A stretch of 64,000 nucleotides of DNA from Candidatus Parcubacteria bacterium (GTDB taxonomy: Bacteria > Patescibacteriota > Minisyncoccia > Phycocordibacterales > JAACPR01): assembly GCA_009995365.1 (NCBI GenBank), contig JAACPR010000001.1:30680-94679 (forward strand), given 5' to 3'. The notes beneath the pieces were generated by a model. The model was not told where the DNA came from and made no database searches. It saw nothing but the letters and a program-made list of their open reading frames with translations. The position numbers and the translations under genes are program-made. This document shows, piece after piece, positions 9,664 through 45,267 of this stretch (position 1 is the first letter of the stretch; each line of letters begins with the position of its first letter).

Positions 9664-10137
9664 TTAATTTAAATCAGTTCTTGGTGCAATAGTATTATTA
9701 AAATCATCTAATAAATATTTCACTATTTCTTCAGCTCTGCTAATATCTTTTTTGTCTGACATGGATATTAATATTTTTGATTTTTCCGCGTCTATCATCA
9801 AAGTCTCTAGTTTGCTTTGAGCGTCAATTATCTCATTAATTTCATTTTTTATTTTTTCTCTTTTCTTTCTAAATTCTGGAGTATTTGCTTTATCTGATTC
9901 AATTAGTTTTTCAGATAAGTCAGATAATTTATCATATCTATTATTTAGATCAGAATTAATCATCTTTAATTGTTTTTCGAATAAGATAACCTTAACAAGT
10001 TCTATATCTTCGGGGTTTAATAAACTAAATCGCTTTAAAACTCTCTCGGTAAAATTTTTAATTCTGTGTGTTAATAGTAATAATTCAGGATCGATATTTG
10101 GTTGGTCGTTGTTTTCAAAAGATTCGTTTAATTTCAT
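9664..10137 (-). CDS. hypothetical acidic coiled-coil protein
   Basis: 157-aa ORF on minus strand, convergent with rpoD and divergent from the helicase; no recognisable motif. Confidence 0.4.
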   Translation of the reverse strand: MKLNESFENNDQPNIDPELLLLTHRIKNFTERVLKRFSLLNPEDIELVKVILFEKQLKMINSDLNNRYDKLSDLSEKLIESDKANTPEFRKKREKIKNEINEIIDAQSKLETLMIDAEKSKILISMSDKKDISRAEEIVKYLLDDFNNTIAPRTDLN

Positions 10138-10161
10138 GATATAAATTATATCAAAACTTGT

Positions 10162-10167
10162 TATAAT
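10162..10167 (+). promoter_or_regulatory. extended -10 element (TGtTATAAT at 10159-10167), 8 nt upstream of the helicase ATG (probable leaderless or near-leaderless transcript)
   Basis: Sequence 'cttgTTATAATtcaaacatATG'. Confidence 0.35.
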
Positions 10168-10175
10168 TCAAACAT

Positions 10176-13154
10176 ATGGATAAAAATTTATTTGAGGAGC
10201 AATATAAACAACTAAATCAAAAACAAAAGGAAGCGGTCGATACGATCGAAGGGCCTGTAATGGTTATTGCTGGACCTGGGACTGGAAAGACGACAATCCT
10301 CACTCTTCGTATCGCAAATATTCTACAAAAAACCGATACTCAGCCTGAAAATATATTAGCCCTTACTTTTACAGAGTCAGGTGTTTTTTCCATGAGGAAA
10401 AAATTATCAAAAATTATTGGATCAGTGGCTCACAAGATTAATATTTTCACTTTTCACGGTTTTTGTAATTATCTAATAGAACAATATCCAGAAAATTATC
10501 AAAAAATTATTTCTTCTAAACCAATCTCTCAATCACAACAAATTAAATTAATCGAAGACATAATTTTGCAAGGTGACTTTGATTTGGTTAAGCCAATAGG
10601 AGATCAGACTTATTATGTAATGAAAATAAAATCAGCGATCTCTCACCTAAAAAAAGAAGGCTTCACTTTTGATGAATATAAGGAAATTTTGCAAAACAAA
10701 ATTACTGAAATTGAAGATGATGAGTCTTTGATAAATAAAAAAACTGGCAAACTAAAAGGCGACGCATCGAGAGAACTTAAAAAAATAAAGAGAAGTTTAG
10801 AATTGAATACTGTTTACAAAGAATACCAAGGCAGATTGCGCGAACTCAAGCTGTTTGATTTTGACGATATGATTTTAGAGACACTAGAAGCGTTTGATAA
10901 TGATCCTGACTTTCTTTTGGAGCAACAAGAAAAATTCCAATATTTATTAGCAGATGAACATCAAGACACTAACCATGCTCAAAATAGAATATTAGAATTG
11001 TTGGCAGATTTTCACGACAGTCCAAACATTTTTATTGTAGGCGACGAAAAACAAGCTATCTTTCGATTCCAGGGTGCGTCTCTGGAGAATTTTCTTTATT
11101 TCAAAGACAAGTTTAAAGACACAAAAATAATCCAGCTTAAAGAAAATTATCGTTCTAATCAAAACATTTTAGATAATGCTTTTGAATTAATTTCTCGAAA
11201 CGAAACCGACGAATCGCTCAAGATTGAATTAAAAAGTGGAATCAAGACTGTTGATGAGGATAATTTAGATATACCTGAAAAAATTCAAGTTAAAGAATAC
11301 AAAAATTACAACCAAGAAATTTACAGTATTTCTGAAAAGATTAAAACCTTAATTGACAAAGGAGTAGACCCAAATGAAATAGCAATTATTTATCGTAAAA
11401 ATTCTGAGTCTTCCGAAATTAGCAAAATTCTCGAAGCTAAAAAAATTCCTTATTATATAAATTCAAAGCAAAACATAATGGACAGTGATGATGTCCTAAG
11501 AATTAAAATAATGTTAAAGGCAATTAGCGACCCTTTTTCAAATCCCGACATCATATCTCTATTTAATTTAGACTTTATAAATTTACCTCTTAGAGATATC
11601 CACAAGATTTCTAAAAAATTACGGGATAATAATATTTTTGATTTAGTAAACGAGCTTGATGAAGATGAGTTTGAAGATTTTGGAAAGATTAAACAGGTAA
11701 TTTCAAAGATAGATTATTTTCATAAGCAATCAAAAAATCGTAATGGACTGCGGGTTTTTGAAGAGTTAATAAATGACTTTGGTTTAATTGATTCAATTTT
11801 AGGTTCGAATGATTCTGTCGAGAGAATGGCAGTTATAAATAAAATTCATTCCGAATTCAAAACAAATAGCGCTTCAAAAAATAATTATCTATTAAGTGAT
11901 TTTATAGAATACTTAAACACTTTAGAGATTTATAATATAGATCTTGAAACTTATATAAATGATATAGATGAAGGAGTTTCTCTGATGACCGCGCACGGCT
12001 CAAAAGGATTAGAGTATGATTATGTTTTTATTATTAATACTAATCAGAAAAATTGGGGTAATTCATCAAGTAGAAATTATTTTGACTTACCTTATATAAA
12101 TAAAGAGATCAAAAATAACCAATCTACAGAAGATGAAAGAAGGCTGTTCTATGTATCTCTAACACGAGCCAGAAAAATGGTTCAGTTAAGTTATTCTGAA
12201 TTTAGTAATGACGGTAAAGAAAACTACCCATCTCAGTTTATAGATGAACTAAAAAAAGATATGGTAGATTTTGAAAAAGTTAAACCAATAAAAAATCATA
12301 ATATAATTTCTGATTTATTAAAAAGTGAAAGACAAAAAACAAAAATAACTGACAAAAATTACATCAAGAAAATGTTTTTAGAAACGCCAATGTCTGTAAC
12401 TGCTCTCAATAACTATCTAGAATGTCCATGGAGGTATTTTTATTCAAATCTTATTAGAATTCCTATGCCTACAACCAGTAGTTTAGCTTTTGGTAATGCG
12501 ATACATGCTACATTTAAATGGTATGTTGATAACATAAAACAAAAACCTGATATAGAAAAATTGAAAGACAAATTTACAGAATTTCTAGAAGAGCAAAATG
12601 TCGATTCTGATAATAAAAAAACTATTAAAAAAGAGGCGAGTGAGATACTGCCAAAATATTTTGAAACTTTTTTAAAAGATTTAGACCCAAAAATAGAGCG
12701 CTTAACTGAATATAGTATTTCAGATTACACTTTAAAATTTGATGATTGTGAAATTCGTTTAAAAGGTAATTTGGACAGGATAGATTTTATCAACGACAAA
12801 GATGTAGAAGTTATTGATTACAAAACCACTAAACCAAAATCTGAGAATGAGATAAAAGGGAAGACACAAAATAGTGATGGAGCATATTATCGCCAATTAA
12901 TTTTCTACAAGATGTTGATTGAAAATCACAAAGATTGGAAAATGAAAAATGCGCAATTAAATTTTGTTAAACCTAATGATAAGGGTGATTTTCTCTCTAG
13001 AATTTTTGAAATTTCGAATGAGGAAGTGGAGGATTTGAAAAAAACAATTATAAAAGTATCTAGGGAAATAGTTAATGGTGATTTCCTAAATAAAAAATGT
13101 GACAAGCCAGATTGTAGCTATTGTAGAAAAGTAGATATTTTCAATAGAAATTAA
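10176..13154 (+). CDS. UvrD/PcrA-like superfamily 1 helicase fused to a C-terminal PD-(D/E)XK nuclease with Cas4/AddB-like Cys cluster
   Basis: Walker A 'AGPGTGKTT', motif II 'LLADEHQDTNHAQ', 'ENYRSNQNIL'. C-terminus: 'CPWRYFY', 'DRIDFINDKDVEVIDYKTTKPK', 'CDKPDCSYC'. Confidence 0.8.
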   Translation: MDKNLFEEQYKQLNQKQKEAVDTIEGPVMVIAGPGTGKTTILTLRIANILQKTDTQPENILALTFTESGVFSMRKKLSKIIGSVAHKINIFTFHGFCNYLIEQYPENYQKIISSKPISQSQQIKLIEDIILQGDFDLVKPIGDQTYYVMKIKSAISHLKKEGFTFDEYKEILQNKITEIEDDESLINKKTGKLKGDASRELKKIKRSLELNTVYKEYQGRLRELKLFDFDDMILETLEAFDNDPDFLLEQQEKFQYLLADEHQDTNHAQNRILELLADFHDSPNIFIVGDEKQAIFRFQGASLENFLYFKDKFKDTKIIQLKENYRSNQNILDNAFELISRNETDESLKIELKSGIKTVDEDNLDIPEKIQVKEYKNYNQEIYSISEKIKTLIDKGVDPNEIAIIYRKNSESSEISKILEAKKIPYYINSKQNIMDSDDVLRIKIMLKAISDPFSNPDIISLFNLDFINLPLRDIHKISKKLRDNNIFDLVNELDEDEFEDFGKIKQVISKIDYFHKQSKNRNGLRVFEELINDFGLIDSILGSNDSVERMAVINKIHSEFKTNSASKNNYLLSDFIEYLNTLEIYNIDLETYINDIDEGVSLMTAHGSKGLEYDYVFIINTNQKNWGNSSSRNYFDLPYINKEIKNNQSTEDERRLFYVSLTRARKMVQLSYSEFSNDGKENYPSQFIDELKKDMVDFEKVKPIKNHNIISDLLKSERQKTKITDKNYIKKMFLETPMSVTALNNYLECPWRYFYSNLIRIPMPTTSSLAFGNAIHATFKWYVDNIKQKPDIEKLKDKFTEFLEEQNVDSDNKKTIKKEASEILPKYFETFLKDLDPKIERLTEYSISDYTLKFDDCEIRLKGNLDRIDFINDKDVEVIDYKTTKPKSENEIKGKTQNSDGAYYRQLIFYKMLIENHKDWKMKNAQLNFVKPNDKGDFLSRIFEISNEEVEDLKKTIIKVSREIVNGDFLNKKCDKPDCSYCRKVDIFNRN

Positions 13155-32363: not shown

Positions 32364-35225
32364 ATGCAAGAAAACAACAAAGAATACAATCATAAGAATA
32401 TAGAGCAGAAGTGGCAAAAAGCGTGGCAAGAAAATAAAACATTCAAAACTCCTGATTCGATTGAAGGGAAAGATAATTTCTACACTCTTGTAGAGTTTCC
32501 TTATCCGTCTGGCGATTTACATGTTGGTCATTGGTATGCTTTTGCTGTAACTGATATTTATGCAAAATACCAGAGGTTAATGGGCAAGAATGTTCTTTTT
32601 CCAATTGGTTTTGACGCTTTTGGTTTGCCGGCCGAGAATGCTGCCATAAAAAACAAAGTAAATCCGGATGATTGGACTAGGCAAAATATTGAATCAATGA
32701 AAAAGCAAATGGTCGCTATGGGAAATTCGTTTGATTGGGATAGAATGATTGCTACGACCGATCCGCGATATTACAAATGGACTCAGTGGATTTTTACCCA
32801 AATGTTCGAGCGAGGACTTGCTTATAAAAAGAAAGCGACGGTTAATTGGGATCCAGTTGATAAAACTGTTTTAGCTAATGAACAAGTCATGCCTGACGGA
32901 ACTGCCGAGCGCTCTGGTGCAGTAGTTGAAAAGAAAGAAATCGACCAGTGGTTTCTAAAAATTACTGATTATGCCGAGCGACTTTATGATGATTTAGATG
33001 AGCTTGATTGGCCTAGTCAGATTAAGGATCAGCAGAAAAATTGGATTGGCAAGTCCTATGGTGCAGAATTAAATTTTGATATAAAAGATTCTGCCGACAA
33101 TTCTTTTGAAGAGAAAATAAAAGTTTTTACAACTCGACCTGACACACTATTCGGAGCGACTTATGTTGTATTGGCTCCTGAAAATGAATTAATCAATACA
33201 CTTTCAGATAAAATTTCTAATATAAACGAAGTCAAAAAATACATCGAAACAGCTCGAGCAAAGACTGAAATTGAAAGGACAAAAATAGAAAAAGAAAAAA
33301 CCGGTATTAAATTAGATGGCGTTTCTGCAATTAATCCGGCAACCAAAGAAGAAATTCCGATTTTCGTTGCTGACTATGTTCTAGGTGGATACGGAACAGG
33401 CTCTGTGATGGCAGTTCCTGCACATGATGAGCGTGATTATGCTTTTGCTAAAAAGTTTGATTTACCAATTAAATATGTAATCGAGCCTATTACTGGAGAA
33501 CCACAAGAAGATGAAGAGAAAAGACAAAGCATTGTAGCCCTAGTTGAAAACCCAGAAAATGGGGAAATTTTAAGTATTAATTGGGGTGAAAAATTAGGAG
33601 GAAACTTATTAATTGGAGGCGGATTAAAAGAAGGAGAAGATCCTATAGAATGTGCAAAAAGAGAAATTATTGAAGAGACTGGTTATAAAAACTTTGAATA
33701 TATTGGCAAGACCGAGTTAATTCACCATCACTACAGAGCTCATTCTAAAAATGTAAATCGTGAGATCGATGCAATTGGTCTTTATTTTAGGTTAACTAAT
33801 TTAGAAAAAATTGAACAAAATCTAGAAGATGATGAGAAAGATAAATTTAAAGTTGAATTTATTTCAAAAGAAAAAGCAGAAAAAAATATCAAAGATCCAT
33901 TACATAATTATATCTTTAATAAATTTATTAATGAAAAAATTTATACTGATAATGGATTTTTAACTAATTCAGGGGAGTTCAACGGCTTAACTTCACAAGA
34001 AGCCAAAGAGAAAATTACAGAATTTGTTAGTGGGGAAATGAAAACAACTTTTAAATTGCGTGATTGGTCAGTAGGAAGACAGAGGTATTGGGGAACTCCT
34101 GTTCCAATCGTTTATGATCCAGAAGGAAAACCACATCCAATTCCAAAAGAGAATTTACCATGGACACTACCGGCGGATGTTGATTATACTCCAACAGGTG
34201 AACCACCGTTAGCTAAATCAAAAGAATTAAAAGAAAGAACAGAAGAAATATTTGGAAAAGGGTGGACTCCAGAGGTAGAGACTCTTGATACTTTTATCGA
34301 TTCTTCTTGGTATTTCTTGAGATATATTGATTCAAATAATTCAGACACTATTGCCGACAAGGATAAACTATCACAATGGATACCAGTTGATTTTTATTCC
34401 GGCGGAGCAGAGCATACAACTCTCCACTTGTTGTATTCTAGGTTCTTTCACAAATTTCTATCAGACATAGGTATCGTCGACACAAAGGAACCATATAAAA
34501 ATAGATTGAACCGCGGTCTTATTTCAGGGACTGACGGAAATAAAATGTCAAAATCAAAAGGTAATGTTATTAACCCCGATGAAATTGTAGAGCGTCTTGG
34601 TTCTGATACTGTTCGTCTTTACCTTGCTTTTATTGGTCCATACAACGAGCCAGGTTCATATCCATGGGATCCTAATGGTGTTGTGGGTGTTCGTCGTTTT
34701 CTAGAGAAAATATGGCGTCTTGCACAAAACAGGGTTATAGAAAATCCATCAGAAAAATCTTCTGATAAAACTATACTTGAAATTAATAAGCTTATTAAAA
34801 AAGCGCACGAAGATTATCCTGAACTAAAATTTAACACCGTCGTTGCCTCTATGATGAGTTTTCTAAATGCTACAGAAAAAGAAGAAATTTCAAAAGAAGA
34901 TTTTATAAAGTTCTTGATTGTCTTATCTCCAGCAGCTCCTCATATCTCAGAAGAATTATTTAATATAATTTCAAACACCCAAGAAACCATTTTTGATCAA
35001 AAAATTCCTGACTTTGATGAAGCAATTTTGCAAAATCAAGAAAAAATTATTGGAATTCAAATCAATGGTAAAGTCCGTGCAGAAATCGCAGTCTCAGAAT
35101 CAGAATCAGAAGAAATTTTGAAAGAAAAAATCCTTGAAATGCCAGAGATAAAGAAGTGGACAGAAGATAAAGAAATCAGAAAATTCATCTATATTCCAGG
35201 CAGAATAATAAGTATTGTCTTATAA
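32364..35225 (+). CDS. leuS: leucyl-tRNA synthetase carrying an inserted Nudix hydrolase domain (~aa 376-525)
   Basis: 'PYPSGDLHVGHWYAF' (HIGH), editing-domain blocks 'TTRPDTLFGATYVVLAPE' and 'GTGSVMAVPAHDERDYAFA', 'NSGEFNGL', 'LRDWSVGRQRYWGTPVP', 'GNKMSKSKGN' (KMSKS). Inserted segment contains the Nudix box 'GGGLKEGEDPIECAKREIIEETGY'. Confidence 0.92.
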   Translation: MQENNKEYNHKNIEQKWQKAWQENKTFKTPDSIEGKDNFYTLVEFPYPSGDLHVGHWYAFAVTDIYAKYQRLMGKNVLFPIGFDAFGLPAENAAIKNKVNPDDWTRQNIESMKKQMVAMGNSFDWDRMIATTDPRYYKWTQWIFTQMFERGLAYKKKATVNWDPVDKTVLANEQVMPDGTAERSGAVVEKKEIDQWFLKITDYAERLYDDLDELDWPSQIKDQQKNWIGKSYGAELNFDIKDSADNSFEEKIKVFTTRPDTLFGATYVVLAPENELINTLSDKISNINEVKKYIETARAKTEIERTKIEKEKTGIKLDGVSAINPATKEEIPIFVADYVLGGYGTGSVMAVPAHDERDYAFAKKFDLPIKYVIEPITGEPQEDEEKRQSIVALVENPENGEILSINWGEKLGGNLLIGGGLKEGEDPIECAKREIIEETGYKNFEYIGKTELIHHHYRAHSKNVNREIDAIGLYFRLTNLEKIEQNLEDDEKDKFKVEFISKEKAEKNIKDPLHNYIFNKFINEKIYTDNGFLTNSGEFNGLTSQEAKEKITEFVSGEMKTTFKLRDWSVGRQRYWGTPVPIVYDPEGKPHPIPKENLPWTLPADVDYTPTGEPPLAKSKELKERTEEIFGKGWTPEVETLDTFIDSSWYFLRYIDSNNSDTIADKDKLSQWIPVDFYSGGAEHTTLHLLYSRFFHKFLSDIGIVDTKEPYKNRLNRGLISGTDGNKMSKSKGNVINPDEIVERLGSDTVRLYLAFIGPYNEPGSYPWDPNGVVGVRRFLEKIWRLAQNRVIENPSEKSSDKTILEINKLIKKAHEDYPELKFNTVVASMMSFLNATEKEEISKEDFIKFLIVLSPAAPHISEELFNIISNTQETIFDQKIPDFDEAILQNQEKIIGIQINGKVRAEIAVSESESEEILKEKILEMPEIKKWTEDKEIRKFIYIPGRIISIVL

Positions 35226-35376: not shown

Positions 35377-36405
35377 ATGATTAAACTAAGTTTTAAACCA
35401 AAAGAAATAGTAAAAAAAATACTATCTGAATTGCCAGAGAGGTCGCGTGATGTTCTTGTCAAAAGATACGGACTTGGAAAAGAGACCGCTAAAATGACTT
35501 TAGAAGCTATAGGTAAAGAATACTCAATTACCAGAGAAAGAGTTCGTCAAATCGAAGAACATGGACTTAACCTTATTAGAAAATCAGAAGTATATAAAGA
35601 TAAAGAACCTGTTTTTGAAGAATTAAAGGGCGTGATTGATGATCTTGGCGTTATAATATCAGAAGAAGAACTATTGGATAATATTTCAAAAGCAGATGGT
35701 GTTAGAAATGCCATCCACTTCCTACTTGTCGTAGGAGACTTTTTCCTAAAACACAAAGAAGACGAGCATTTTACACACAGATGGTCTGTTGATAAAGATC
35801 TAGCTTTAACTGTAGAAGAATCTATTAAGAAACTTTATGAAAATCTTAATCATGAAGATATTATTTCAGAACCTGAATTAATAAAAAACTTTTTGTTTGA
35901 ATTAAAAGATGTTTCAGAAAAATACAAAAATGAAGAAATTATAAAAAGATGGTTAAAACTTTCAAAGAAAATTTCTAGTAATCCTCTTGGTGAATGGGGA
36001 AAATCAGAATCACCAAATATTAATGTAAAAGGAATTCGTGATTATGCCTTCTTGGTAATAAGAAGACACGGCTCTCCAATTCATTTCCGTGAAGTTGCCG
36101 AAGAAATTCAAAAACTTTTCAACAAAAAAGCACATGTTGCCACAACACATAATGAACTTATAAAAGATAGTCGTTTTGTTCTTGTTGGTCGTGGTTTGTA
36201 TGCTTTGACTGATTGGGGTTATTCAAATGGTGTTGTCAGAGACGTCATCAAGGAACTTTTAGTGAAAGAAGGGCCGCTAACTAGAGAAGAAATCATAGAA
36301 AAAGTTTTGAAAGAAAGACATGTAAAAGAAAATACAGTTCTTGTAAATTTACAAAACAGTAAACTTTTCCAAAAAACACCTGACAATAAATATACACTAG
36401 CTTAA
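35377..36405 (+). CDS. sigma-70 region-4-like HTH domain protein (putative transcriptional regulator) with uncharacterised C-terminal domain
   Basis: 'SRDVLVKRYGLGKETAKMTLEAIGKEYSITRERVRQIEEHGLNLIRK' matches the sigma-70 region 4 / LuxR-like HTH pattern; the remaining ~270 aa are unrecognised. Confidence 0.55.
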   Translation: MIKLSFKPKEIVKKILSELPERSRDVLVKRYGLGKETAKMTLEAIGKEYSITRERVRQIEEHGLNLIRKSEVYKDKEPVFEELKGVIDDLGVIISEEELLDNISKADGVRNAIHFLLVVGDFFLKHKEDEHFTHRWSVDKDLALTVEESIKKLYENLNHEDIISEPELIKNFLFELKDVSEKYKNEEIIKRWLKLSKKISSNPLGEWGKSESPNINVKGIRDYAFLVIRRHGSPIHFREVAEEIQKLFNKKAHVATTHNELIKDSRFVLVGRGLYALTDWGYSNGVVRDVIKELLVKEGPLTREEIIEKVLKERHVKENTVLVNLQNSKLFQKTPDNKYTLA

Positions 36406-36434: not shown

Positions 36435-37652
36435 ATGGAAACAATTGATCTATCAAATTCTGTTATTGATTTTCTAGTATTGGCTTTGCCGATAGTAATA
36501 CCTATTTTTCTTGCCATATTATTATTTGATATATGGGTAAGTTTTGCCAGAGAAAGATTTCTATCTTCTCAGGAATATTCTCTCTTAAAAATAATGCCCC
36601 CAACTGATGTTTTAAAGACTCCTCTTGCTATGGAACTTTTTATAAATGGTCTTCATCAGACTTTCGGTGAGGCAACTTTAAAAGATGTGTATTGGAAAGG
36701 GTCGGTTAGGCCAACTTTTTCTCTAGAAATGACTTCAAACGAAGGTCATGTAAATTTTTATTTATGGACTAGAAAATCGATAGTTGGTTTTATTGAATCG
36801 CAAATTTATGCTCAGTATCCTGGAATAGAAATTATTGAAGCAGATGATTATGCTACGAAGTTTGAATTTGATGAATCAAAACACAAGATGTGGGCATTAG
36901 AATATAATTTTACAGAAGATAACTCTGTTCCAATAAAAACCTATGTTGATTATGGTTTAGATAAGCCAACCAAAGATGAGGAAATGGTTGATCCTATTAC
37001 TCCAATGCTTGAATTTCTTGGCTCAGCCAGAGAAGGAGAAAGAATATGGTTTCAAATCTTAATCAAAGCTCACAAAAAAGAAGATAAGAAACCTGGAACT
37101 TTATTTGGAAAAACTGACTTATGGGAAGAAAACCACAAGGCACAGATTAAAAAAATTCAAGAGCTTAACCAAGAAGAGGATTCTGAGGGTAACAAAAGAA
37201 CTTTGCCACCTAGCGAAATTCAAAAAGAGAGAATCCAAGCGATTGAACGCTCTCAAGGTAAACTAGCATTTGATGTTGGCATTAGATCAATTTATATTTC
37301 AGATAAAGATAGTTTTAACCCTGTCAATATTGGTGGATTGATAGGTGCTTTTAAGCAATACAGTTCTAAAAATCTTAATGGTTTTAAACCAGGTAATAAA
37401 ACAAAAATTGACCACTGGTGGCAAGATCCTTTTGGTAAGAATATAAAATTAATAGAAAAACAATTTCTAGATCATTATAGAGAAAGAGCTTATTTTTATA
37501 AAGAATTTATGGGTAAAAAAAGACCGGTTTTAGTAATGAACGCCGAAGAATTAGCGACAATTTATCACTTCCCAGGTTCTGTTGCGATGACTCCTAGTTT
37601 AGAAAGAGTTCAATCTAGAAAAAGCAACGCTCCGTCAGACTTACCAATATAG
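36435..37652 (+). CDS. hypothetical membrane-anchored protein
   Basis: N-terminal TM helix 'VIDFLVLALPIVIPIFLAILLF'; no recognised motif. Confidence 0.4.
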   Translation: METIDLSNSVIDFLVLALPIVIPIFLAILLFDIWVSFARERFLSSQEYSLLKIMPPTDVLKTPLAMELFINGLHQTFGEATLKDVYWKGSVRPTFSLEMTSNEGHVNFYLWTRKSIVGFIESQIYAQYPGIEIIEADDYATKFEFDESKHKMWALEYNFTEDNSVPIKTYVDYGLDKPTKDEEMVDPITPMLEFLGSAREGERIWFQILIKAHKKEDKKPGTLFGKTDLWEENHKAQIKKIQELNQEEDSEGNKRTLPPSEIQKERIQAIERSQGKLAFDVGIRSIYISDKDSFNPVNIGGLIGAFKQYSSKNLNGFKPGNKTKIDHWWQDPFGKNIKLIEKQFLDHYRERAYFYKEFMGKKRPVLVMNAEELATIYHFPGSVAMTPSLERVQSRKSNAPSDLPI

Positions 37653-39721: not shown

Positions 39722-40198
39722 ATGAATAAAAAATTATGGGGAATTATAATATTTTTAATAGTTTTAACTTTTGCTTTTGTAATAACTTATAACAATAACA
39801 AGGTTGAAAAAATTGATGTCCAACTAGAAAGAGATCAAGCTAAAGAAGACCTAGTTGAGAGTCCTAAGACAACAATAAACGTAAAACACCAATACAATGA
39901 TGGTGTCCACGCGTATGTTGGATACTTCACAACACCTACTCCTTGTCATTTACACGAAGCGGATATTGTATATCCATCAGCTGAGGGAGAACCTTATCTT
40001 TTAGAGGTAACTTATGAAGCTAATCCTGATGAAATGTGTGCCCAAGTTATAACTGACAGAGAATTTGAAGTTTCTTTTGAAGCAGAAGAAAGCATTGATG
40101 TAATAGCGTCAATTAACGACGAAGTAGTCAATTTGAACATATTTGAGGTTCCTGCAAATCAATCATTAGAAGAATTTGAAATTCTTAATAAAGGATAA
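39722..40198 (+). CDS. hypothetical secreted or membrane-anchored protein
   Basis: N-terminal signal/TM 'LWGIIIFLIVLTFAFVI'; two Cys residues; unknown function. Confidence 0.4.
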   Translation: MNKKLWGIIIFLIVLTFAFVITYNNNKVEKIDVQLERDQAKEDLVESPKTTINVKHQYNDGVHAYVGYFTTPTPCHLHEADIVYPSAEGEPYLLEVTYEANPDEMCAQVITDREFEVSFEAEESIDVIASINDEVVNLNIFEVPANQSLEEFEILNKG

Positions 40199-40203
40199 TT
40201 AAA

Positions 40204-41043
40204 ATGACTGAAATAAGACTTGTATTAAAAGCTGATGGAACAACAGAACCTTTCGATAGTTCTAAATTAAAAAATTCTTTAACCAAATCAGATGCTTCTG
40301 ATGTTTTAGCTAATGAAATAACTGCAAAAATCGAGAAAAATCTTAAAAAGGTAACGTCCACAGATGAAATTTATAAGACAGCTTATAAACTTCTGAAAAA
40401 AACCAAGAATAAAACTGCGGCTAGATATTCAATGAAAAGAACTATTTTAGATATGGGGCCAACTGGTTTTCCGTTTGAAAAGTTTGTAGCAAAGATTTTT
40501 GCAGAAAAGAAATATAAAACCATGGTAGGTATAATGTTGGACGGCTTTTGCACTGATCACGAGATTGATGTAATAGCAGAAGATGAAGATGATTTATTAT
40601 TTTGTGAAGTTAAATTCCATAATGATTTAAAAACAAAAACAGATACCCGAGTTGCTCTTTATGTAAAAGCAAGATTTGATGATTTAAAAGAAAAAGAATA
40701 CGACTTGTTCGATAAAAGAATGAAGCCCACAAAAGGGATAGTTATAACTAACACTGGTTTTACAACTAGTGCAGAAAAGTATGCTAAATGTGTTGGTTTA
40801 GGAATGATTTCTTGGGATTATCCTAAAAAAGGTAACCTATACGACCTTATTGCTGAAACTAAATTACAACCAATTACTTCTTTGACTACGCTATCTAAAA
40901 ACGATAAGAAAAGATTAATAGAAGAGGGTATAATAGTCTGCAGAGATTTACTAAGCAATAAACAAATTTTATCTACTATTGGTTTAGGTAAAAATAAATC
41001 AAATAAAATTCTTACAGAAGCTAAAGAAGTTTGCTCATATTAG
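40204..41043 (+). CDS. ATP-cone domain fused to Mrr-like (PD-(D/E)XK) restriction-endonuclease catalytic domain
   Basis: ATP-cone-like N-terminus 'IRLVLKADGTTEPFDSSKLKNSL...'; nuclease core 'FEKFVAKIFAEKKYK', 'HEIDVIAEDEDDLLFCEVKFHN' (D...E-V-K). Confidence 0.6.
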   Translation: MTEIRLVLKADGTTEPFDSSKLKNSLTKSDASDVLANEITAKIEKNLKKVTSTDEIYKTAYKLLKKTKNKTAARYSMKRTILDMGPTGFPFEKFVAKIFAEKKYKTMVGIMLDGFCTDHEIDVIAEDEDDLLFCEVKFHNDLKTKTDTRVALYVKARFDDLKEKEYDLFDKRMKPTKGIVITNTGFTTSAEKYAKCVGLGMISWDYPKKGNLYDLIAETKLQPITSLTTLSKNDKKRLIEEGIIVCRDLLSNKQILSTIGLGKNKSNKILTEAKEVCSY

Positions 41044-41067: not shown

Positions 41068-42810
41068 ATGAATTCAGAAGAAATACGAAAAAAATTCTTA
41101 GACTATTTTAAGGAAAAAGAACACGCAATATTGCCCTCGGCTTCTCTTGTGACACCAGAGGAAAAAGGAGTTACTAATTCTACGCTTTTTAATACTGCGG
41201 GTGTTCAACCTTTGGTTCCTTATCTACTAGGTGAAGAACACCCCCAAGGAAACAGGCTCGCCAGCGTTCAAAAATGCATCAGGACGATCGATATTGATGA
41301 AGTTGGAGACAATACTCATCTGACTTTCTTTGAGATGTTGGGGAATTGGTCTCTAGGCGACTATTTCAAAGAAGAAGCTATAAAAATGAGCTTCGAATTT
41401 TTAACTAGTATTGAAAAAGGATTAGGGTTAGATCCAAACAGGCTTTACATAACAGTTTTTGAAGGTGATGAAAATGCACCAAAAGATGAAGAGAGTTTTA
41501 ATATTTGGAAACAATATGTTCCGGAAAATAGAATCTATTACATGAGCGCCGACTCTAACTGGTGGGAAGCGGGTGAAAATGGTCCATGTGGCCCTGATAC
41601 TGAAATGTTTTATGATGTTAGTGGTAATTTGGGCGACTTGGATAAAGAAGCTTTTATGAAAGCAGACGAAGAACAAAAAGTTGTTGAGGTCTGGAACAAC
41701 GTCTTCATGCAGTTCGAAAAGAAAGATGGGAAAATAATAGGTAAATTACCAAGATACGCAGTTGATACAGGAGCCGGACTCGAAAGACTTCTTACGGTAA
41801 AAAACAACAAAAAAAGCATCTACGAAACTGATCTATTTTCAGAAATATTAGAAAAAATTAGAAATACAGATAAAAACAGAATTATTGTTGATCATATTAG
41901 ATCAGCTGTGATGTTGATTTCTGATGGTATTATTCCTTCAAACACAGATCGTGGTTATATTTTGCGTCGAATTATTCGTAGAGCGGTTAAAAATGCCGAA
42001 GATATAAATATTTCAGAAGTAGCAAAATTTTTCATAAACAAAATGGGCAATGCTTATCCTGATGTTAAGGAAAAAGAACAAGAAATATTAAAAACTATTA
42101 ATACAGAAGAAGAAAAATTTAGAAAAAGCTTATCATCTGGACTAAAAGAGTTTAATAAGATTTCAGATAAAAATATTTCAGGAGAAGATGCTTTTAAATT
42201 ATTTTCTAGTTACGGATTTCCGATAGAATTAACAGTAGAGTTAGCAAGAGAAAAAAATATTGAAGTTGATGTGGATTCTTTTAATGAAGAGATGAAAAAA
42301 CATCAAGAAAAATCGCGAACAGCGGCTGAAGGAAAATTCAAAGGTGGCTTGGAAAATTATGGGGAAACGGAAACTAAATACCACACTGCAACTCATCTAC
42401 TTCATCAAGCGTTACGTGATGTGCTAGGAGAGCATGTTCAACAAAAAGGAAGTAATATAAACGCAGACAGGCTAAGATTTGATTTTTCACATGACCAGAA
42501 AATGACCGACGAAGAAAAACAAAAAGTCGAAGAAATTGTAAATGAAAAAATAAAAGAATCTATACCTGTAAATAAAGTTGAGATGGATTTTGATGAGGCA
42601 GAAAAAACAGGAGCTTTACATTTCTTTGGAGATAAATATGGAGACAGAGTTTCAGTTTATTATATTGGAGACTCTATAGAATCAGCTTATTCTAAAGAAT
42701 TTTGTGGCGGACCACATGTAAAGAATACTTCTGAATTAGGAGAGTTCAAAATTAAAAAAGAAGAAGCTAGTTCCGCCGGGGTAAGAAGAATCAAAGCTGT
42801 GTTAAAATAA
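41068..42810 (+). CDS. alaS: alanyl-tRNA synthetase, compact form (catalytic, tRNA-recognition and editing domains; no C-Ala domain)
   Basis: 'HLTFFEMLGNWSLGDYFK', 'WNNVFMQFEK', 'DTGAGLERLL'; editing 'HTATHLLHQALRDVLGEHVQQKGS', 'CGGPHV'. 580 aa versus ~870 typical. Confidence 0.85.
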   Translation: MNSEEIRKKFLDYFKEKEHAILPSASLVTPEEKGVTNSTLFNTAGVQPLVPYLLGEEHPQGNRLASVQKCIRTIDIDEVGDNTHLTFFEMLGNWSLGDYFKEEAIKMSFEFLTSIEKGLGLDPNRLYITVFEGDENAPKDEESFNIWKQYVPENRIYYMSADSNWWEAGENGPCGPDTEMFYDVSGNLGDLDKEAFMKADEEQKVVEVWNNVFMQFEKKDGKIIGKLPRYAVDTGAGLERLLTVKNNKKSIYETDLFSEILEKIRNTDKNRIIVDHIRSAVMLISDGIIPSNTDRGYILRRIIRRAVKNAEDINISEVAKFFINKMGNAYPDVKEKEQEILKTINTEEEKFRKSLSSGLKEFNKISDKNISGEDAFKLFSSYGFPIELTVELAREKNIEVDVDSFNEEMKKHQEKSRTAAEGKFKGGLENYGETETKYHTATHLLHQALRDVLGEHVQQKGSNINADRLRFDFSHDQKMTDEEKQKVEEIVNEKIKESIPVNKVEMDFDEAEKTGALHFFGDKYGDRVSVYYIGDSIESAYSKEFCGGPHVKNTSELGEFKIKKEEASSAGVRRIKAVLK

Positions 42811-42815
42811 TAGCA

Positions 42816-43943
42816 ATGTTCAATAACAAAAAAGATACTTCAAAAACTTCAAAAAAAATCGATTTAATATTTGATATTAGAAATTCTAGCGCTGGTTTGG
42901 GAGTTGTTGAAATTACAAAAAATGAAAGGGTTATAATTTACACAAATAGAAGATATTCTAATCCTTCTGTAGTAAGAGATGTAAAAACTTTTGAAAAACA
43001 GATAGAAAAGATAACTGATGATTTAATCGAAGATTTCATTATTTTTAAAAAAAAGAACAACATTAGACAAATTCTTAATGTTAACTGTGTTTTCTCTGCT
43101 CCTTGGTATGAGGCAGATATTAATAACCTAACTTTTAAAGAAAATAAAAAAACTAAACTCACAGAAAAATATTTAGATCAAAAAATTGAAAAAGGTGATA
43201 TTAATGATGAACTAGAAAGTGTTGAAAACAATTTATTATCGGTTTCTTTGAATGGATATGAAACCGAAAATCCATTCGGGAAAACTTTTACGAGTATTGA
43301 GTTGAGTTTCTATAAAAGTTTTATAGATAAAGAAAACAAAATAAAACAAAAAATAGAAGATAAAATTAATCCCAATAAGCTAAATGTCCACACCCACCCG
43401 TTTGTAATTCTGAGTGTTTTGAGGGCAAATTTTCACAATGTAAATAATTTTTCTTTATTTGATATTGGTGGAGAAATGACAGAAATATCAATATTTAAAA
43501 ACTCAATATTAAAAGAACTAATAACTTTACCTACTGGTTTTAATTCAATAATTAGAAATATTTCCAAAACAACAAACGATGAGCAAATAACAATATCGAA
43601 AATAAAAATGTTAAATTTGAATCAAATAAATGATGACGAATTGTTAGAAAAAATAAACTCTAATATAGAAGCGTGGCTAGAGACAACCAAGAAAATATTA
43701 AATTCAAATGAAATTCAATTACCAAATGATTTTTTTATAGCCATAGATAAAGATTATAAAAAATTAATAAAAGATATATTAAGCAAAAAGGACTTTTATT
43801 CAATGATTTTAAATAAAAACAGGCAACCAAATATAAGAATACTAGACTCAATTGATCAAAAAAATCTAGCCGTATATGCAAAAAATGTTAACAGAGATCC
43901 TTTGATTTCAATTATTTATAATTTTTCAACAATTGAAATTTAA
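42816..43943 (+). CDS. hypothetical actin-like ATPase (ASKHA superfamily; PilM/FtsA-like?)
   Basis: 'IDLIFDIRNSSAGLGVVEI' (phosphate-1-like), 'FSLFDIGGEMTEISIF' (phosphate-2 'DIGGGTT'-like). Confidence 0.4.
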   Translation: MFNNKKDTSKTSKKIDLIFDIRNSSAGLGVVEITKNERVIIYTNRRYSNPSVVRDVKTFEKQIEKITDDLIEDFIIFKKKNNIRQILNVNCVFSAPWYEADINNLTFKENKKTKLTEKYLDQKIEKGDINDELESVENNLLSVSLNGYETENPFGKTFTSIELSFYKSFIDKENKIKQKIEDKINPNKLNVHTHPFVILSVLRANFHNVNNFSLFDIGGEMTEISIFKNSILKELITLPTGFNSIIRNISKTTNDEQITISKIKMLNLNQINDDELLEKINSNIEAWLETTKKILNSNEIQLPNDFFIAIDKDYKKLIKDILSKKDFYSMILNKNRQPNIRILDSIDQKNLAVYAKNVNRDPLISIIYNFSTIEI

Positions 43944-43968: not shown

Positions 43969-45267
43969 ATGGATAAAAAAAATATACAAGACGTTGTTCC
44001 GCCAACACAAAGAAAATCAATTAGAAATATTCCTATACCAAATAGGAGTAACAAGAACGGAGAAATTAAAAGGAACACTCCACCAATACACAAAAAAGAA
44101 GAATTTGATTTTGAAGAAAGAAACACCAGACCTAGAAAAAACAATATTAAAAAATATTTTATATTAATAGGTTCGGTGGTTACTTTAATTTTATTATTTG
44201 TTGTATTTTCAAGCTTTACTAGTGCAACAATAAAAATAAAACCAAAAATAGAGTCATCCACATTTGACGAGAGAATGGTTATAGAAGATTTATCAACAAG
44301 AGAGAATAATGAATCATTAGGCTATAGAATAATTGAATTAGCTAAAGAATCAGAGAAAATAGTCGAGGCCCAAAACGAAGAACTTGTTCAAGAAAAAGCA
44401 TCAGGGGAAATAACTATTTTTAACGAATACTCAGAAAGCAACCAAACACTTATAACAAATACTAGATTTGAATCAGAAGATGGAAAAATATATAGAATCC
44501 AAGAATCTATTAGTGTTCCTGGATATACAGAATCAAATGGAGAAATAATACCTGGCCAAATAACAGCAACTGTATATGCAGACGAAGAAGGAGAAGAATA
44601 CAACTTAGAATCTGGAGATTTCACAATACCAGGCTTTAAAGGGCAAGAACCTTACGACTTTTTCTATGCAAAAACAGAGACAAGTATAAGCGGCGGATTT
44701 GATGGAGTCAGGAGAATAGTATCAGACGAAGATATAGAACTGGCAACCACAGAATTACAAGAAGACGTCAGAAATAAACTACTACAAGAATTAAACGAAC
44801 AAATAACAGAAGAATTCTATATTCATCAAGATGGAGATTCTTTTTCTTTTGATAATATAGAACAAGAACAAATAGAAAACAGTGAAAATGTTAAATTAAA
44901 ACTTAGAGGAAAAATATCAGCAAAAATATTTAACAAAGTGGATATATCAAATAAAATAGCAGATAATATATTTGCCAATTATTTCTCAAATGAAAATACT
45001 CTGATTGAAAATTTTGAAAATATTGAATTTTCAATTTCAGAAAATGATCTTTCTGAGATGTTAAACGCTTCAGGAAATTCTAATTTCATTTGGCAAGTTG
45101 ATGAAAACAAACTAAAAGAAGACTTGATAGGAATAGAAAAAAACCTTCTTTCTACTGTAATGCAAGACTATACTGAAATCCAAACAGCAGAAGCAGTAAT
45201 CAAACCATTCTGGGTTTCTAGCTTCCCACAAGAAAAGAAAAAGATAAAAGTTGAAATTGTTAGGTAA
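43969..45267 (+). CDS. hypothetical bitopic membrane protein with large acidic extracytoplasmic domain
   Basis: Basic N-terminus, one TM 'YFILIGSVVTLILLFVVF', ~350-aa D/E-rich C-terminal domain. Confidence 0.4.
   Translation: MDKKNIQDVVPPTQRKSIRNIPIPNRSNKNGEIKRNTPPIHKKEEFDFEERNTRPRKNNIKKYFILIGSVVTLILLFVVFSSFTSATIKIKPKIESSTFDERMVIEDLSTRENNESLGYRIIELAKESEKIVEAQNEELVQEKASGEITIFNEYSESNQTLITNTRFESEDGKIYRIQESISVPGYTESNGEIIPGQITATVYADEEGEEYNLESGDFTIPGFKGQEPYDFFYAKTETSISGGFDGVRRIVSDEDIELATTELQEDVRNKLLQELNEQITEEFYIHQDGDSFSFDNIEQEQIENSENVKLKLRGKISAKIFNKVDISNKIADNIFANYFSNENTLIENFENIEFSISENDLSEMLNASGNSNFIWQVDENKLKEDLIGIEKNLLSTVMQDYTEIQTAEAVIKPFWVSSFPQEKKKIKVEIVR

Follow-up and report, generated by a model that had tools for sequence, protein, structure and literature searches.

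What is the role of a protein that carries the nucleotide-sensing domain of ribonucleotide reductases in front of a restriction-type nuclease, and is such a protein part of anti-phage defence or of core metabolism? The question is raised by a gene for a protein of 279 residues in a stretch of 64 000 nucleotides from a Candidatus Parcubacteria bacterium (assembly GCA_009995365.1, contig JAACPR010000001.1, positions 30 680 to 94 679, forward strand); this whole stretch is referred to as the window. An earlier note, made from the letters of the DNA, had described the gene as a fusion of an ATP-cone to an Mrr-like PD-(D/E)XK nuclease, paired with a secreted protein encoded upstream, and had proposed a nucleotide-gated defence or stress effector. 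The observation was confirmed and the interpretation was partly supported. The reading favoured here, with about even confidence, is that of an adenine-nucleotide-gated DNA endonuclease of the AF1548 type which would serve the turnover or repair of nucleic acids in step with the energy and nucleotide status of the cell and feed nucleotide salvage, and which is unlikely to serve anti-phage defence. The domain architecture, the conservation of the catalytic and adenine-pocket residues, the distribution and the gene neighbourhoods were established directly.

Domain architecture and structural model

Pfam identified an ATP-cone (PF03477, residues 7–79, 42.2 bits against a cutoff of 25.8, E = 1.2e-10), an Mrr_cat nuclease domain (PF04471, residues 88–196, 24.9 bits against a cutoff of 21) and an AF1548-like_C domain (PF22357, residues 223–276, 29.2 bits against a cutoff of 23.9). 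With both of its hidden Markov models (HMMs) above their cutoffs the claimed fusion stands; the sequence strings quoted in its favour are present and the D...E-x-K motif corresponds to D122, E135 and K137. The C-terminal helix–hairpin–helix (HhH) domain and the homology to AF1548 across its full length had been overlooked. AF1548 from Archaeoglobus fulgidus (PDB entry 1Y88) is a structural-genomics protein of unknown function; it has the same nuclease plus C-terminal unit and the same catalytic motif in 199 residues and lacks an ATP-cone, whereas the window protein adds an N-terminal nucleotide sensor of ∼85 residues. Residues 94–277 were aligned by phmmer to residues 23–196 of the 1Y88 chain (E = 8.3e-27), and the C-terminal profile matched the same entry with E = 4.5e-12.

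An AlphaFold2 model of the complete protein was calculated with 72 homologues as input [predicted local distance difference test (pLDDT) 91.9, predicted template-modelling score (pTM) 0.84]. Using Foldseek, the C-terminal two-thirds of this model were matched to 1Y88 (E = 1.4e-14, TM 0.81 normalized to the target) and the N-terminus to the ATP-cones of NrdR and ribonucleotide reductases (RNRs; entries 9a6n, 9fvr, 9fxk, 7p37, 5im3 and 6r1r; root-mean-square deviations of 1.6–2.6 Å over 81–88 residues, including superpositions at 1.6–2.0 Å over 81–84 residues), the fold here consisting of a β-hairpin lid and four helices. A profile of the ATP-cone searched against the PDB gave a marginal match to NrdR (E = 0.009) behind a spurious designed repeat protein, so that this domain is assigned by Pfam and by its fold. 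Similarity was also seen between the nuclease core and the nuclease domains of MspJI, Can2 and Cdn1. Neither a Zn-ribbon nor an N-terminal reader of modified DNA (Mrr_N type, winged-helix or SRA-like) was found in the protein by Pfam, the N-terminus being the ATP-cone. The architecture is an ATP-cone, then a PD-(D/E)XK nuclease, then a (HhH)2-like DNA binder.

When the C-terminal domain was modelled by itself (pLDDT 83.9), Foldseek returned 1Y88 first and then the N-terminal domain of Rad51/RadA (1.7–2.0 Å over 56–60 residues), followed by the α-CTD of RNA polymerase, BAF and the HhH regions of Y-family polymerases; besides 1Y88, the matches are to duplex-DNA-binding HhH modules only, and a typical HhH motif, ILSTIGLGKNKSNKIL, is present in the sequence. 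The resemblance to Rad51/RadA bears on the possibility of a structure-specific nuclease for DNA repair or recombination that would act on flaps, forks or Holliday junctions, with the ATP-cone permitting cutting only when nucleotide pools allow repair synthesis. The succession of a nuclease and a C-terminal (HhH)2 domain also parallels structure-specific nucleases of the XPF/Mus81 type, and 'Holliday junction resolvase' occurs among the source names of family members. This name reflects a sub-threshold similarity, however: on the 279-residue protein UPF0102 reached 19.0 bits (cutoff 23.6) and the YraN NCBIfam models reached 13–18 bits (cutoffs 81–203), and a UPF0102/YraN/Hjc resolvase-like enzyme was rejected because these cutoffs were not reached.

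Catalytic residues and the adenine pocket

Residue conservation was evaluated in 72 homologues from Patescibacteria and Bacteroidota with identities down to 33%. The nuclease residues E92, H119-E120-x-D122 and E135-x-K137-x-H139 are invariant in all 72, in agreement with the catalytic assignment of the earlier note and extending it to E92. In the ATP-cone, K9, K21 and L22 are likewise invariant.

In the inner site of Escherichia coli NrdR the adenine is covered by Lys53, Glu59 and Lys65, a hydrophobic pocket is formed by Val51, Phe61, Leu66 and Ile108, and the carbonyl group of Pro60 reads adenine N6 (bioRxiv 10.1101/2025.03.28.645925). By profile alignment, NrdR V51, K53, E59, P60, F61, K65, L66, S105 and I108 correspond to V7, K9, E15, P16, F17, K21, L22, T53 and I56 of the window protein. 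Binding of an adenine nucleotide by this ATP-cone, as predicted from the alignment, is well supported by inference.

The invariant catalytic residues weigh on a further explanation, in which the protein would mainly be an NrdR-like, nucleotide-responsive DNA-binding regulator and would cleave little or not at all; the ATP-cone would govern how the nuclease fold and the HhH module bind to an operator upstream of the stress or salvage operon. A DNA-binding module joined to an ATP-cone has its precedent in NrdR itself, and in Bacteroidota and Chlamydiota the nuclease gene is often the first of its operon. Invariance of E92, D122, E135, K137, H119, E120 and H139 across phyla would be unexpected if catalysis had been lost; moreover, a sequence-specific DNA-binding domain is missing, as HhH motifs bind the DNA backbone, and the operon to be regulated is absent in Patescibacteria. 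A mainly regulatory function is accordingly considered very improbable.

Gene neighbourhood in Patescibacteria

The context was compiled from 80 reference loci of Patescibacteria, and recurrent families were defined by clustering all open reading frames (ORFs) of 160 loci, namely these 80 and 80 metagenome loci of the Bacteroidota type. In Patescibacteria the gene lies in a co-directional block that runs LeuRS, a sigma70_r4/HARE-HTH protein, a DUF8128 protein, MltG, MnmA, the ATP-cone nuclease, a variable slot, AlaS and two conserved proteins of unknown function. MnmA is present at 69 of the 80 loci, MltG at 58, the DUF8128 protein at 55, the sigma-like protein at 46 and AlaS at 35. Such a position marks a core gene passed on by vertical descent and not an island gene. 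In the window, the nuclease gene and the ORF upstream of it are flanked by genes identified with Pfam as MltG/YceG, MnmA (252 bits) and AlaS (427 bits).

The gene had been placed between mnmA and alaS, among core genes and beside no methyltransferase, and this holds: its neighbours are MnmA, the small membrane protein and AlaS, no DNA methyltransferase gene stands beside it in the window and none is found among the recurrent neighbour families of the 160 loci. A restriction-modification system was rejected for want of an adjacent methyltransferase. The same clustering yielded no RNR family among the recurrent neighbours, and the homologues are thus not universally adjacent to RNR genes; an NrdR-type RNR regulator was rejected on this ground and because the protein has no Zn-ribbon.

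The variable slot is occupied by a family-4-type uracil-DNA glycosylase (UDG; 27/80), a Cas4-like PD-(D/E)XK nuclease (24/80) or MgtC (23/80), less commonly by a DUF7282 membrane protein (15/80) or an Ogt/MGMT DNA-binding domain (12/80), and also by a YfbR-like HD 5'-deoxynucleotidase (7/80) or by M3 peptidases. The UDG, Cas4-like and Ogt genes would suit the structure-specific repair nuclease discussed above. They are confined to one class, though, where inherited synteny may explain them, and in other phyla the gene is accompanied by genes of catabolism and stress and not by those of recombination. A dedicated repair or recombination enzyme is for these reasons regarded as rather unlikely.

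The 158-residue protein encoded upstream had been presented as the partner of the nuclease. Both ORFs and the spacing of 5 nt between them, on the same (+) strand, were exactly as claimed. The small family to which the upstream protein belongs is characterized by a hydrophobic helix at the N-terminus and two Cys residues that most members keep, and the protein itself contains no Pfam domain above cutoff. The pairing was not sustained: a search with an iterated HMM placed the family directly 5' of the nuclease gene at 15 of the 80 Patescibacteria loci and at none of the 80 Bacteroidota-type loci. A relative with a 75%-identical nuclease retains the protein. The Cys-containing protein is a lineage-restricted neighbour and not an obligate partner.

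Distribution of the family and a possible role in defence

With the window protein as the query, 1693 clusters at 90% identity were retrieved, the best 120 of which were full-length at 45–75% identity; the orthologs from Pontibacter and Criblamydia retrieved more than 7522 clusters at 90% identity and more than 6551 clusters, respectively. A HMMER pass over 1.84 billion representatives gave 381 clusters (50% identity) at E ≤ 1e-30, nearly all of 270–290 residues and matched end to end. The ATP-cone nuclease is encoded by at least 600 GTDB species representatives, mostly Patescibacteria (Paceibacteria) with Bacteroidota in addition, and members from Chlamydiia appear in the plasmid search and among the matches to the Criblamydia query. 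The window protein itself recurs with identical sequence and unchanged gene order in 72 blocks of the assembly collection. The distribution is wide and vertical.

The rarity implied by the earlier note did not survive these searches, as the family has thousands of members that already bear generic names: 'ATP cone domain-containing protein', 'restriction endonuclease', 'ATPase', 'Holliday junction resolvase' and, in one source, 'restriction endonuclease/ATP cone domain-containing protein/AF1548-like protein'. Since the architecture is already catalogued in databases, the gene stands as an ordinary representative of a large family that has names but is uncharacterized, and the fusion is not rare. 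The family was correctly said to lack experimental characterization, no paper on an ATP-cone/nuclease fusion having been found in the literature searched (in PMC4390871 the term 'restriction endonuclease' appears in the reference list only).

A role in defence, as first suggested, would require that the ATP-cone sense an ATP or deoxynucleoside triphosphate (dNTP) pool disturbed by phage and release the DNase in an anti-phage or abortive-infection response. Ligand-gated PD-(D/E)XK nucleases are common as immune effectors, the core resembles those of Can2, Cdn1 and MspJI, and a protein of this type without an adjacent methyltransferase would need allosteric control. Neither of the two window proteins matched a PADLOC model when scanned, however, and no copy was found in 50 697 phage records (tblastn) or in 2.9 million viral contigs (IMG/VR), while the ATP-cone nuclease is carried by two of 72 556 plasmids. 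Its place in the core block is fixed in at least 69 of 80 species, at identities of 45–75% that are typical of vertical descent, and no recognized defence system was found among the recurrent neighbour families of the 160 loci. A known system of PADLOC-DB was rejected on the lack of a model match, the core syntenic block and the lack of phage or viral copies. A gene with a core location may, strictly speaking, still have an immune role; defence was therefore kept as a rival explanation and is judged improbable.

Genomic context in Bacteroidota and Chlamydiota

The two plasmids that carry the gene are from Pontibacter actiniarum (Bacteroidota) and Criblamydia sequanensis (Chlamydiota), and on both it stands in the same array, followed in this order by genes for a metallo-β-lactamase (MBL)-fold/β-CASP hydrolase, a thymidine-phosphorylase-family protein and a ribose-phosphate pyrophosphokinase (Prs); in Criblamydia a P-type ATPase, phosphoketolase, glucan phosphorylase and acetate kinase are encoded in the vicinity. 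In searches of the PDB the β-CASP partner matched the ribonuclease TTHA0252 (E = 8e-75) and Prs was closest to the archaeal phosphoribosyl pyrophosphate (PRPP) synthetase 1U9Y. The 'thymidine phosphorylase' matched 4GA5/4GA6 with its N-terminal extension included (E = 8e-93), compared with about 1e-36 for true thymidine and pyrimidine-nucleoside phosphorylases. Entries 4GA4–6 we take to be the AMP phosphorylase of Thermococcus kodakarensis, which converts a nucleoside monophosphate (NMP) and phosphate to the base and ribose-1,5-bisphosphate.

The β-CASP gene was found at 30 of the 80 Bacteroidota-type loci; among the 60 loci whose sequence extends 1.5 kb or more downstream, it followed the nuclease gene as the next ORF in 19. 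Tandem universal stress proteins (26/80), a P-type cation ATPase (21/80), an AMP-phosphorylase-like gene (12/80), Prs (10/80), MgtC/DUF4010 (10/80) and Hsp20 (6/80) were further neighbours, and PFK, a GAPDH-like protein, a DeoC-family aldolase, an AAA_28/dNK-like kinase and a REC-cNMP-Crp regulator also recurred; at least one such marker was present in 25 of the 32 loci of at least 12 kb. The context was consistent on the chromosomes of the cultured Psychroserpens ponticola and Chitinophaga eiseniae and in a metagenome-assembled genome from Chlamydiia; in Chitinophaga the nuclease gene overlaps the AAA_28 kinase gene and lies upstream of the gene for the carbon-starvation protein CstA. MgtC is the sole partner family common to the Patescibacteria and Bacteroidota contexts, and its recurrence together with that of the P-type cation ATPase hints at a link to Mg2+/ATP homeostasis. 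Examples of MgtC-family genes are L071:2919-3416 (Patescibacteria) and L096:4860-6128 and L167:5304-6572 (Bacteroidota).

A conserved ORF of 84 residues without a Pfam match lies between the ATP-cone nuclease and β-CASP genes at nine loci (L096:8838-9092 and eight other Bacteroidota-type loci, e.g. L108, L112, L125 and L131) and is also found at L167:9883-10137; its product may be an extra small subunit or regulator of the module. At L167, the chromosomal locus of P. ponticola, ∼1.5 kb without a called gene (10137-11622) occupies the usual place of the β-CASP gene and may contain a pseudogene or an uncalled gene.

The trio MBL–Prs–TP of Bradyrhizobium diazoefficiens (bll3115–3117) is induced by microoxia at the protein and transcript levels (PMC6515984); for bll3114 and bll3118 no expression data were found in the supplements of that study. 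By analogy only, the Burkholderia lxa and mycobacterial DosR low-oxygen islands have an overall similar gene set (PMC3721108), and the paper on the lxa locus does not mention the ATP-cone nuclease. The link of this nuclease to stress and salvage islands appears to be undescribed. The idea of a stress effector fits the islands of these phyla.

Proposed function

RNR and NrdR ATP-cones set the supply of dNTPs via nucleotide-driven oligomerization, and to our knowledge ATP-cones have been studied experimentally almost only in these proteins. In the window protein the ATP-cone is likewise expected to bind ATP, possibly dATP, and to switch the nuclease; if the analogy with RNR and NrdR holds, nucleotide occupancy would alter the oligomeric state or the domain packing and thereby turn cleavage on or off. 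Cleavage itself would be metal-dependent and carried out by the Mrr-like PD-(D/E)XK core while the (HhH)2 domain holds the DNA backbone. The role would be a regulated turnover or repair of nucleic acids tied to energy and nucleotide status and supplying nucleotide salvage, for which, outside Patescibacteria, the nuclease may cooperate with the β-CASP nuclease and the NMP-phosphorylase/PRPP route. For candidate phyla radiation bacteria an AMP-phosphorylase nucleoside pathway has been reported (PMC5113843), and a salvage-linked role is therefore plausible in the lineage of the window. Nucleotide binding, the direction of regulation, DNA as the substrate and the physiological role are what we infer from the observations; the architecture, the conserved residues and the lack of a methyltransferase or RNR linkage make the nucleotide-gated nuclease of the earlier note a reasonable molecular inference.

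Several points weigh against this reading. Mrr_cat barely exceeds its cutoff, and the HhH structural matches have weak E-values (0.02–1) because the C-terminal domain is small; together with an RNase as the commonest partner, these weak matches make an RNA substrate possible. The outer-site Tyr131 of NrdR discriminates ATP from dATP and has no Tyr equivalent in the window protein, the position being R79 by extended alignment; E15 is moreover replaced in the Bacteroidota branch, so that dATP-specific sensing, another part of the original proposal, is not established. The synteny in Patescibacteria belongs to one class, whose loci are not independent of each other in phylogenetic terms. Neither the Patescibacteria loci nor the 64 kb window contain the partners seen in the stress islands and in salvage, and transfer of their context to the window gene is thus an extrapolation across ∼38% identity. 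Finally, biochemical data on family members or on AF1548 were not found in the literature searched.

A more far-reaching form of the favoured reading, put forward tentatively, is that of a 'reverse RNR' under feedback control, in which an ATP-cone reading adenylates or dATP would gate a DNase and thereby make the cell's own DNA or imported DNA accessible to catabolism. The products in Bacteroidota and Chlamydiota might pass from the DNase to the β-CASP nuclease, the NMP phosphorylase and the PRPP/pentose route, yielding nucleotides or energy in hypoxia or starvation. Patescibacteria are reported to rely on nucleotide salvage, and there the nuclease would have become a core enzyme that sets the supply of DNA precursors. 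If true, control of a nuclease by ATP-cone allostery would be met here for the first time, and the regulated self-digestion of nucleic acids would have a defined point of entry.

Coupling of the ATP-cone to the nuclease would, if true, extend ATP-cone allostery to nucleic-acid degradation, assign a testable function to AF1548, an orphan structure for 20 years, and provide a handle on the control of the nucleotide economy in ultra-small, salvage-dependent bacteria as well as on the role of the widespread Usp/β-CASP/AMP-phosphorylase/Prs islands under hypoxia or starvation. With a single chain of 279 residues and a confident model, the decisive biochemistry should be straightforward.

Comparison with related systems

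The ATP-cones of NrdR and of the RNR proteins NrdA, NrdD and NrdB are the same sensor domain with the same inner-site adenine pocket and probably share, by analogy, the mode of nucleotide-dependent oligomerization; the output domain is a nuclease in the window protein and a Zn-ribbon repressor (NrdR) or a reductase (RNR) in the others, and the tyrosine by which the NrdR outer site distinguishes ATP from dATP is not conserved. Mrr type IV restriction endonucleases and MspJI have the PD-(D/E)XK fold and motif in common with the window protein and likewise lack a cognate methyltransferase. Their N-terminal reader of modified DNA is replaced here by the ATP-cone and the HhH domain, and the context consists of core and stress genes, in contrast to the mobile and defence genes around members of the Mrr family; an Mrr-type restriction enzyme was rejected in the absence of such a reader domain. 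Can2, Card1, Cdn1 and Cap4 of CRISPR and CBASS systems follow the same logic of a small-nucleotide sensor joined to a PD-(D/E)XK nuclease, with similar nuclease domains. Their CARF and SAVED sensors read a dedicated second messenger, whereas an ATP-cone reads a primary metabolite, and the window protein is not associated with a cyclase, a CRISPR locus or a PADLOC match.

Features of the locus and other genes of the window

The features of the locus are listed in Table 1. A scan for promoters and terminators between 35 and 46 kb of the window gave counts at or near the shuffle expectation, and in scans of the window with Rfam and for tRNAs a tRNA-Ala was the only hit and nothing was found close to the nuclease locus.

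Table 1. Features of the ATP-cone nuclease locus (positions in the window)
Feature	Position	Strand	Basis or remarks
Gene for the three-domain protein [ATP-cone, PD-(D/E)XK nuclease, (HhH)2-like domain], 279 residues	40204..41043	+	ORF, Pfam, AlphaFold2 model, full-length orthologs
ATP-cone, residues 7-79	40222..40440	+	PF03477; hairpin lid V7-K9...E15-P16-F17, helix 1 K21-L22, T53/I56
Mrr-like PD-(D/E)XK nuclease core, residues 85-204	40456..40815	+	PF04471, 1Y88 homology, invariant residues, fold
Catalytic codon E92	40477-40479	+	
Catalytic codon D122	40567-40569	+	
Catalytic codon E135	40606-40608	+	
Catalytic codon K137	40612-40614	+	
C-terminal AF1548-like (HhH)2-type DNA-binding domain, residues 205-279	40816..41040	+	PF22357, model; HhH motif ILSTIGLGKNKSNKIL
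Putative Shine-Dalgarno-like AAAGGA	40190-40195	+	8 nt before the nuclease ATG, within the 3' end of the upstream ORF; function inferred
Upstream 158-residue protein, N-terminal membrane anchor or signal peptide, two Cys	39722..40198	+	ORF, family HMM

Among the other genes of the block, that for LeuRS (32364..35225, +) encodes a protein of 953 residues in which a NUDIX hydrolase domain (residues 387–507, 43.4 bits against a cutoff of 21.1) is inserted right behind the editing domain; in the relative with the 75%-identical nuclease (L165), the ortholog is on record with this architecture as well. It is followed by the gene for the protein with sigma-70 region 4 and HARE-HTH (35377..36405, +) and then by that for the DUF8128 protein (36435..37652, +), two families that lie upstream of mltG–mnmA at the numbers of Patescibacteria loci given above. 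AlaS (41068..42810, +) has 580 residues with the catalytic and tRNA_SAD domains and without the canonical long C-terminal region of the bacterial enzyme, and its orthologs at related loci are of similar size (about 580–617 residues). The two conserved proteins encoded 3' of alaS (42816..43943 and 43969..45267, both +) occur at 15 and 9 of the 80 loci, respectively, and gave sub-threshold matches only, one to FtsA (19.9 bits) and the other to a GlxA β-barrel (24.8 bits).

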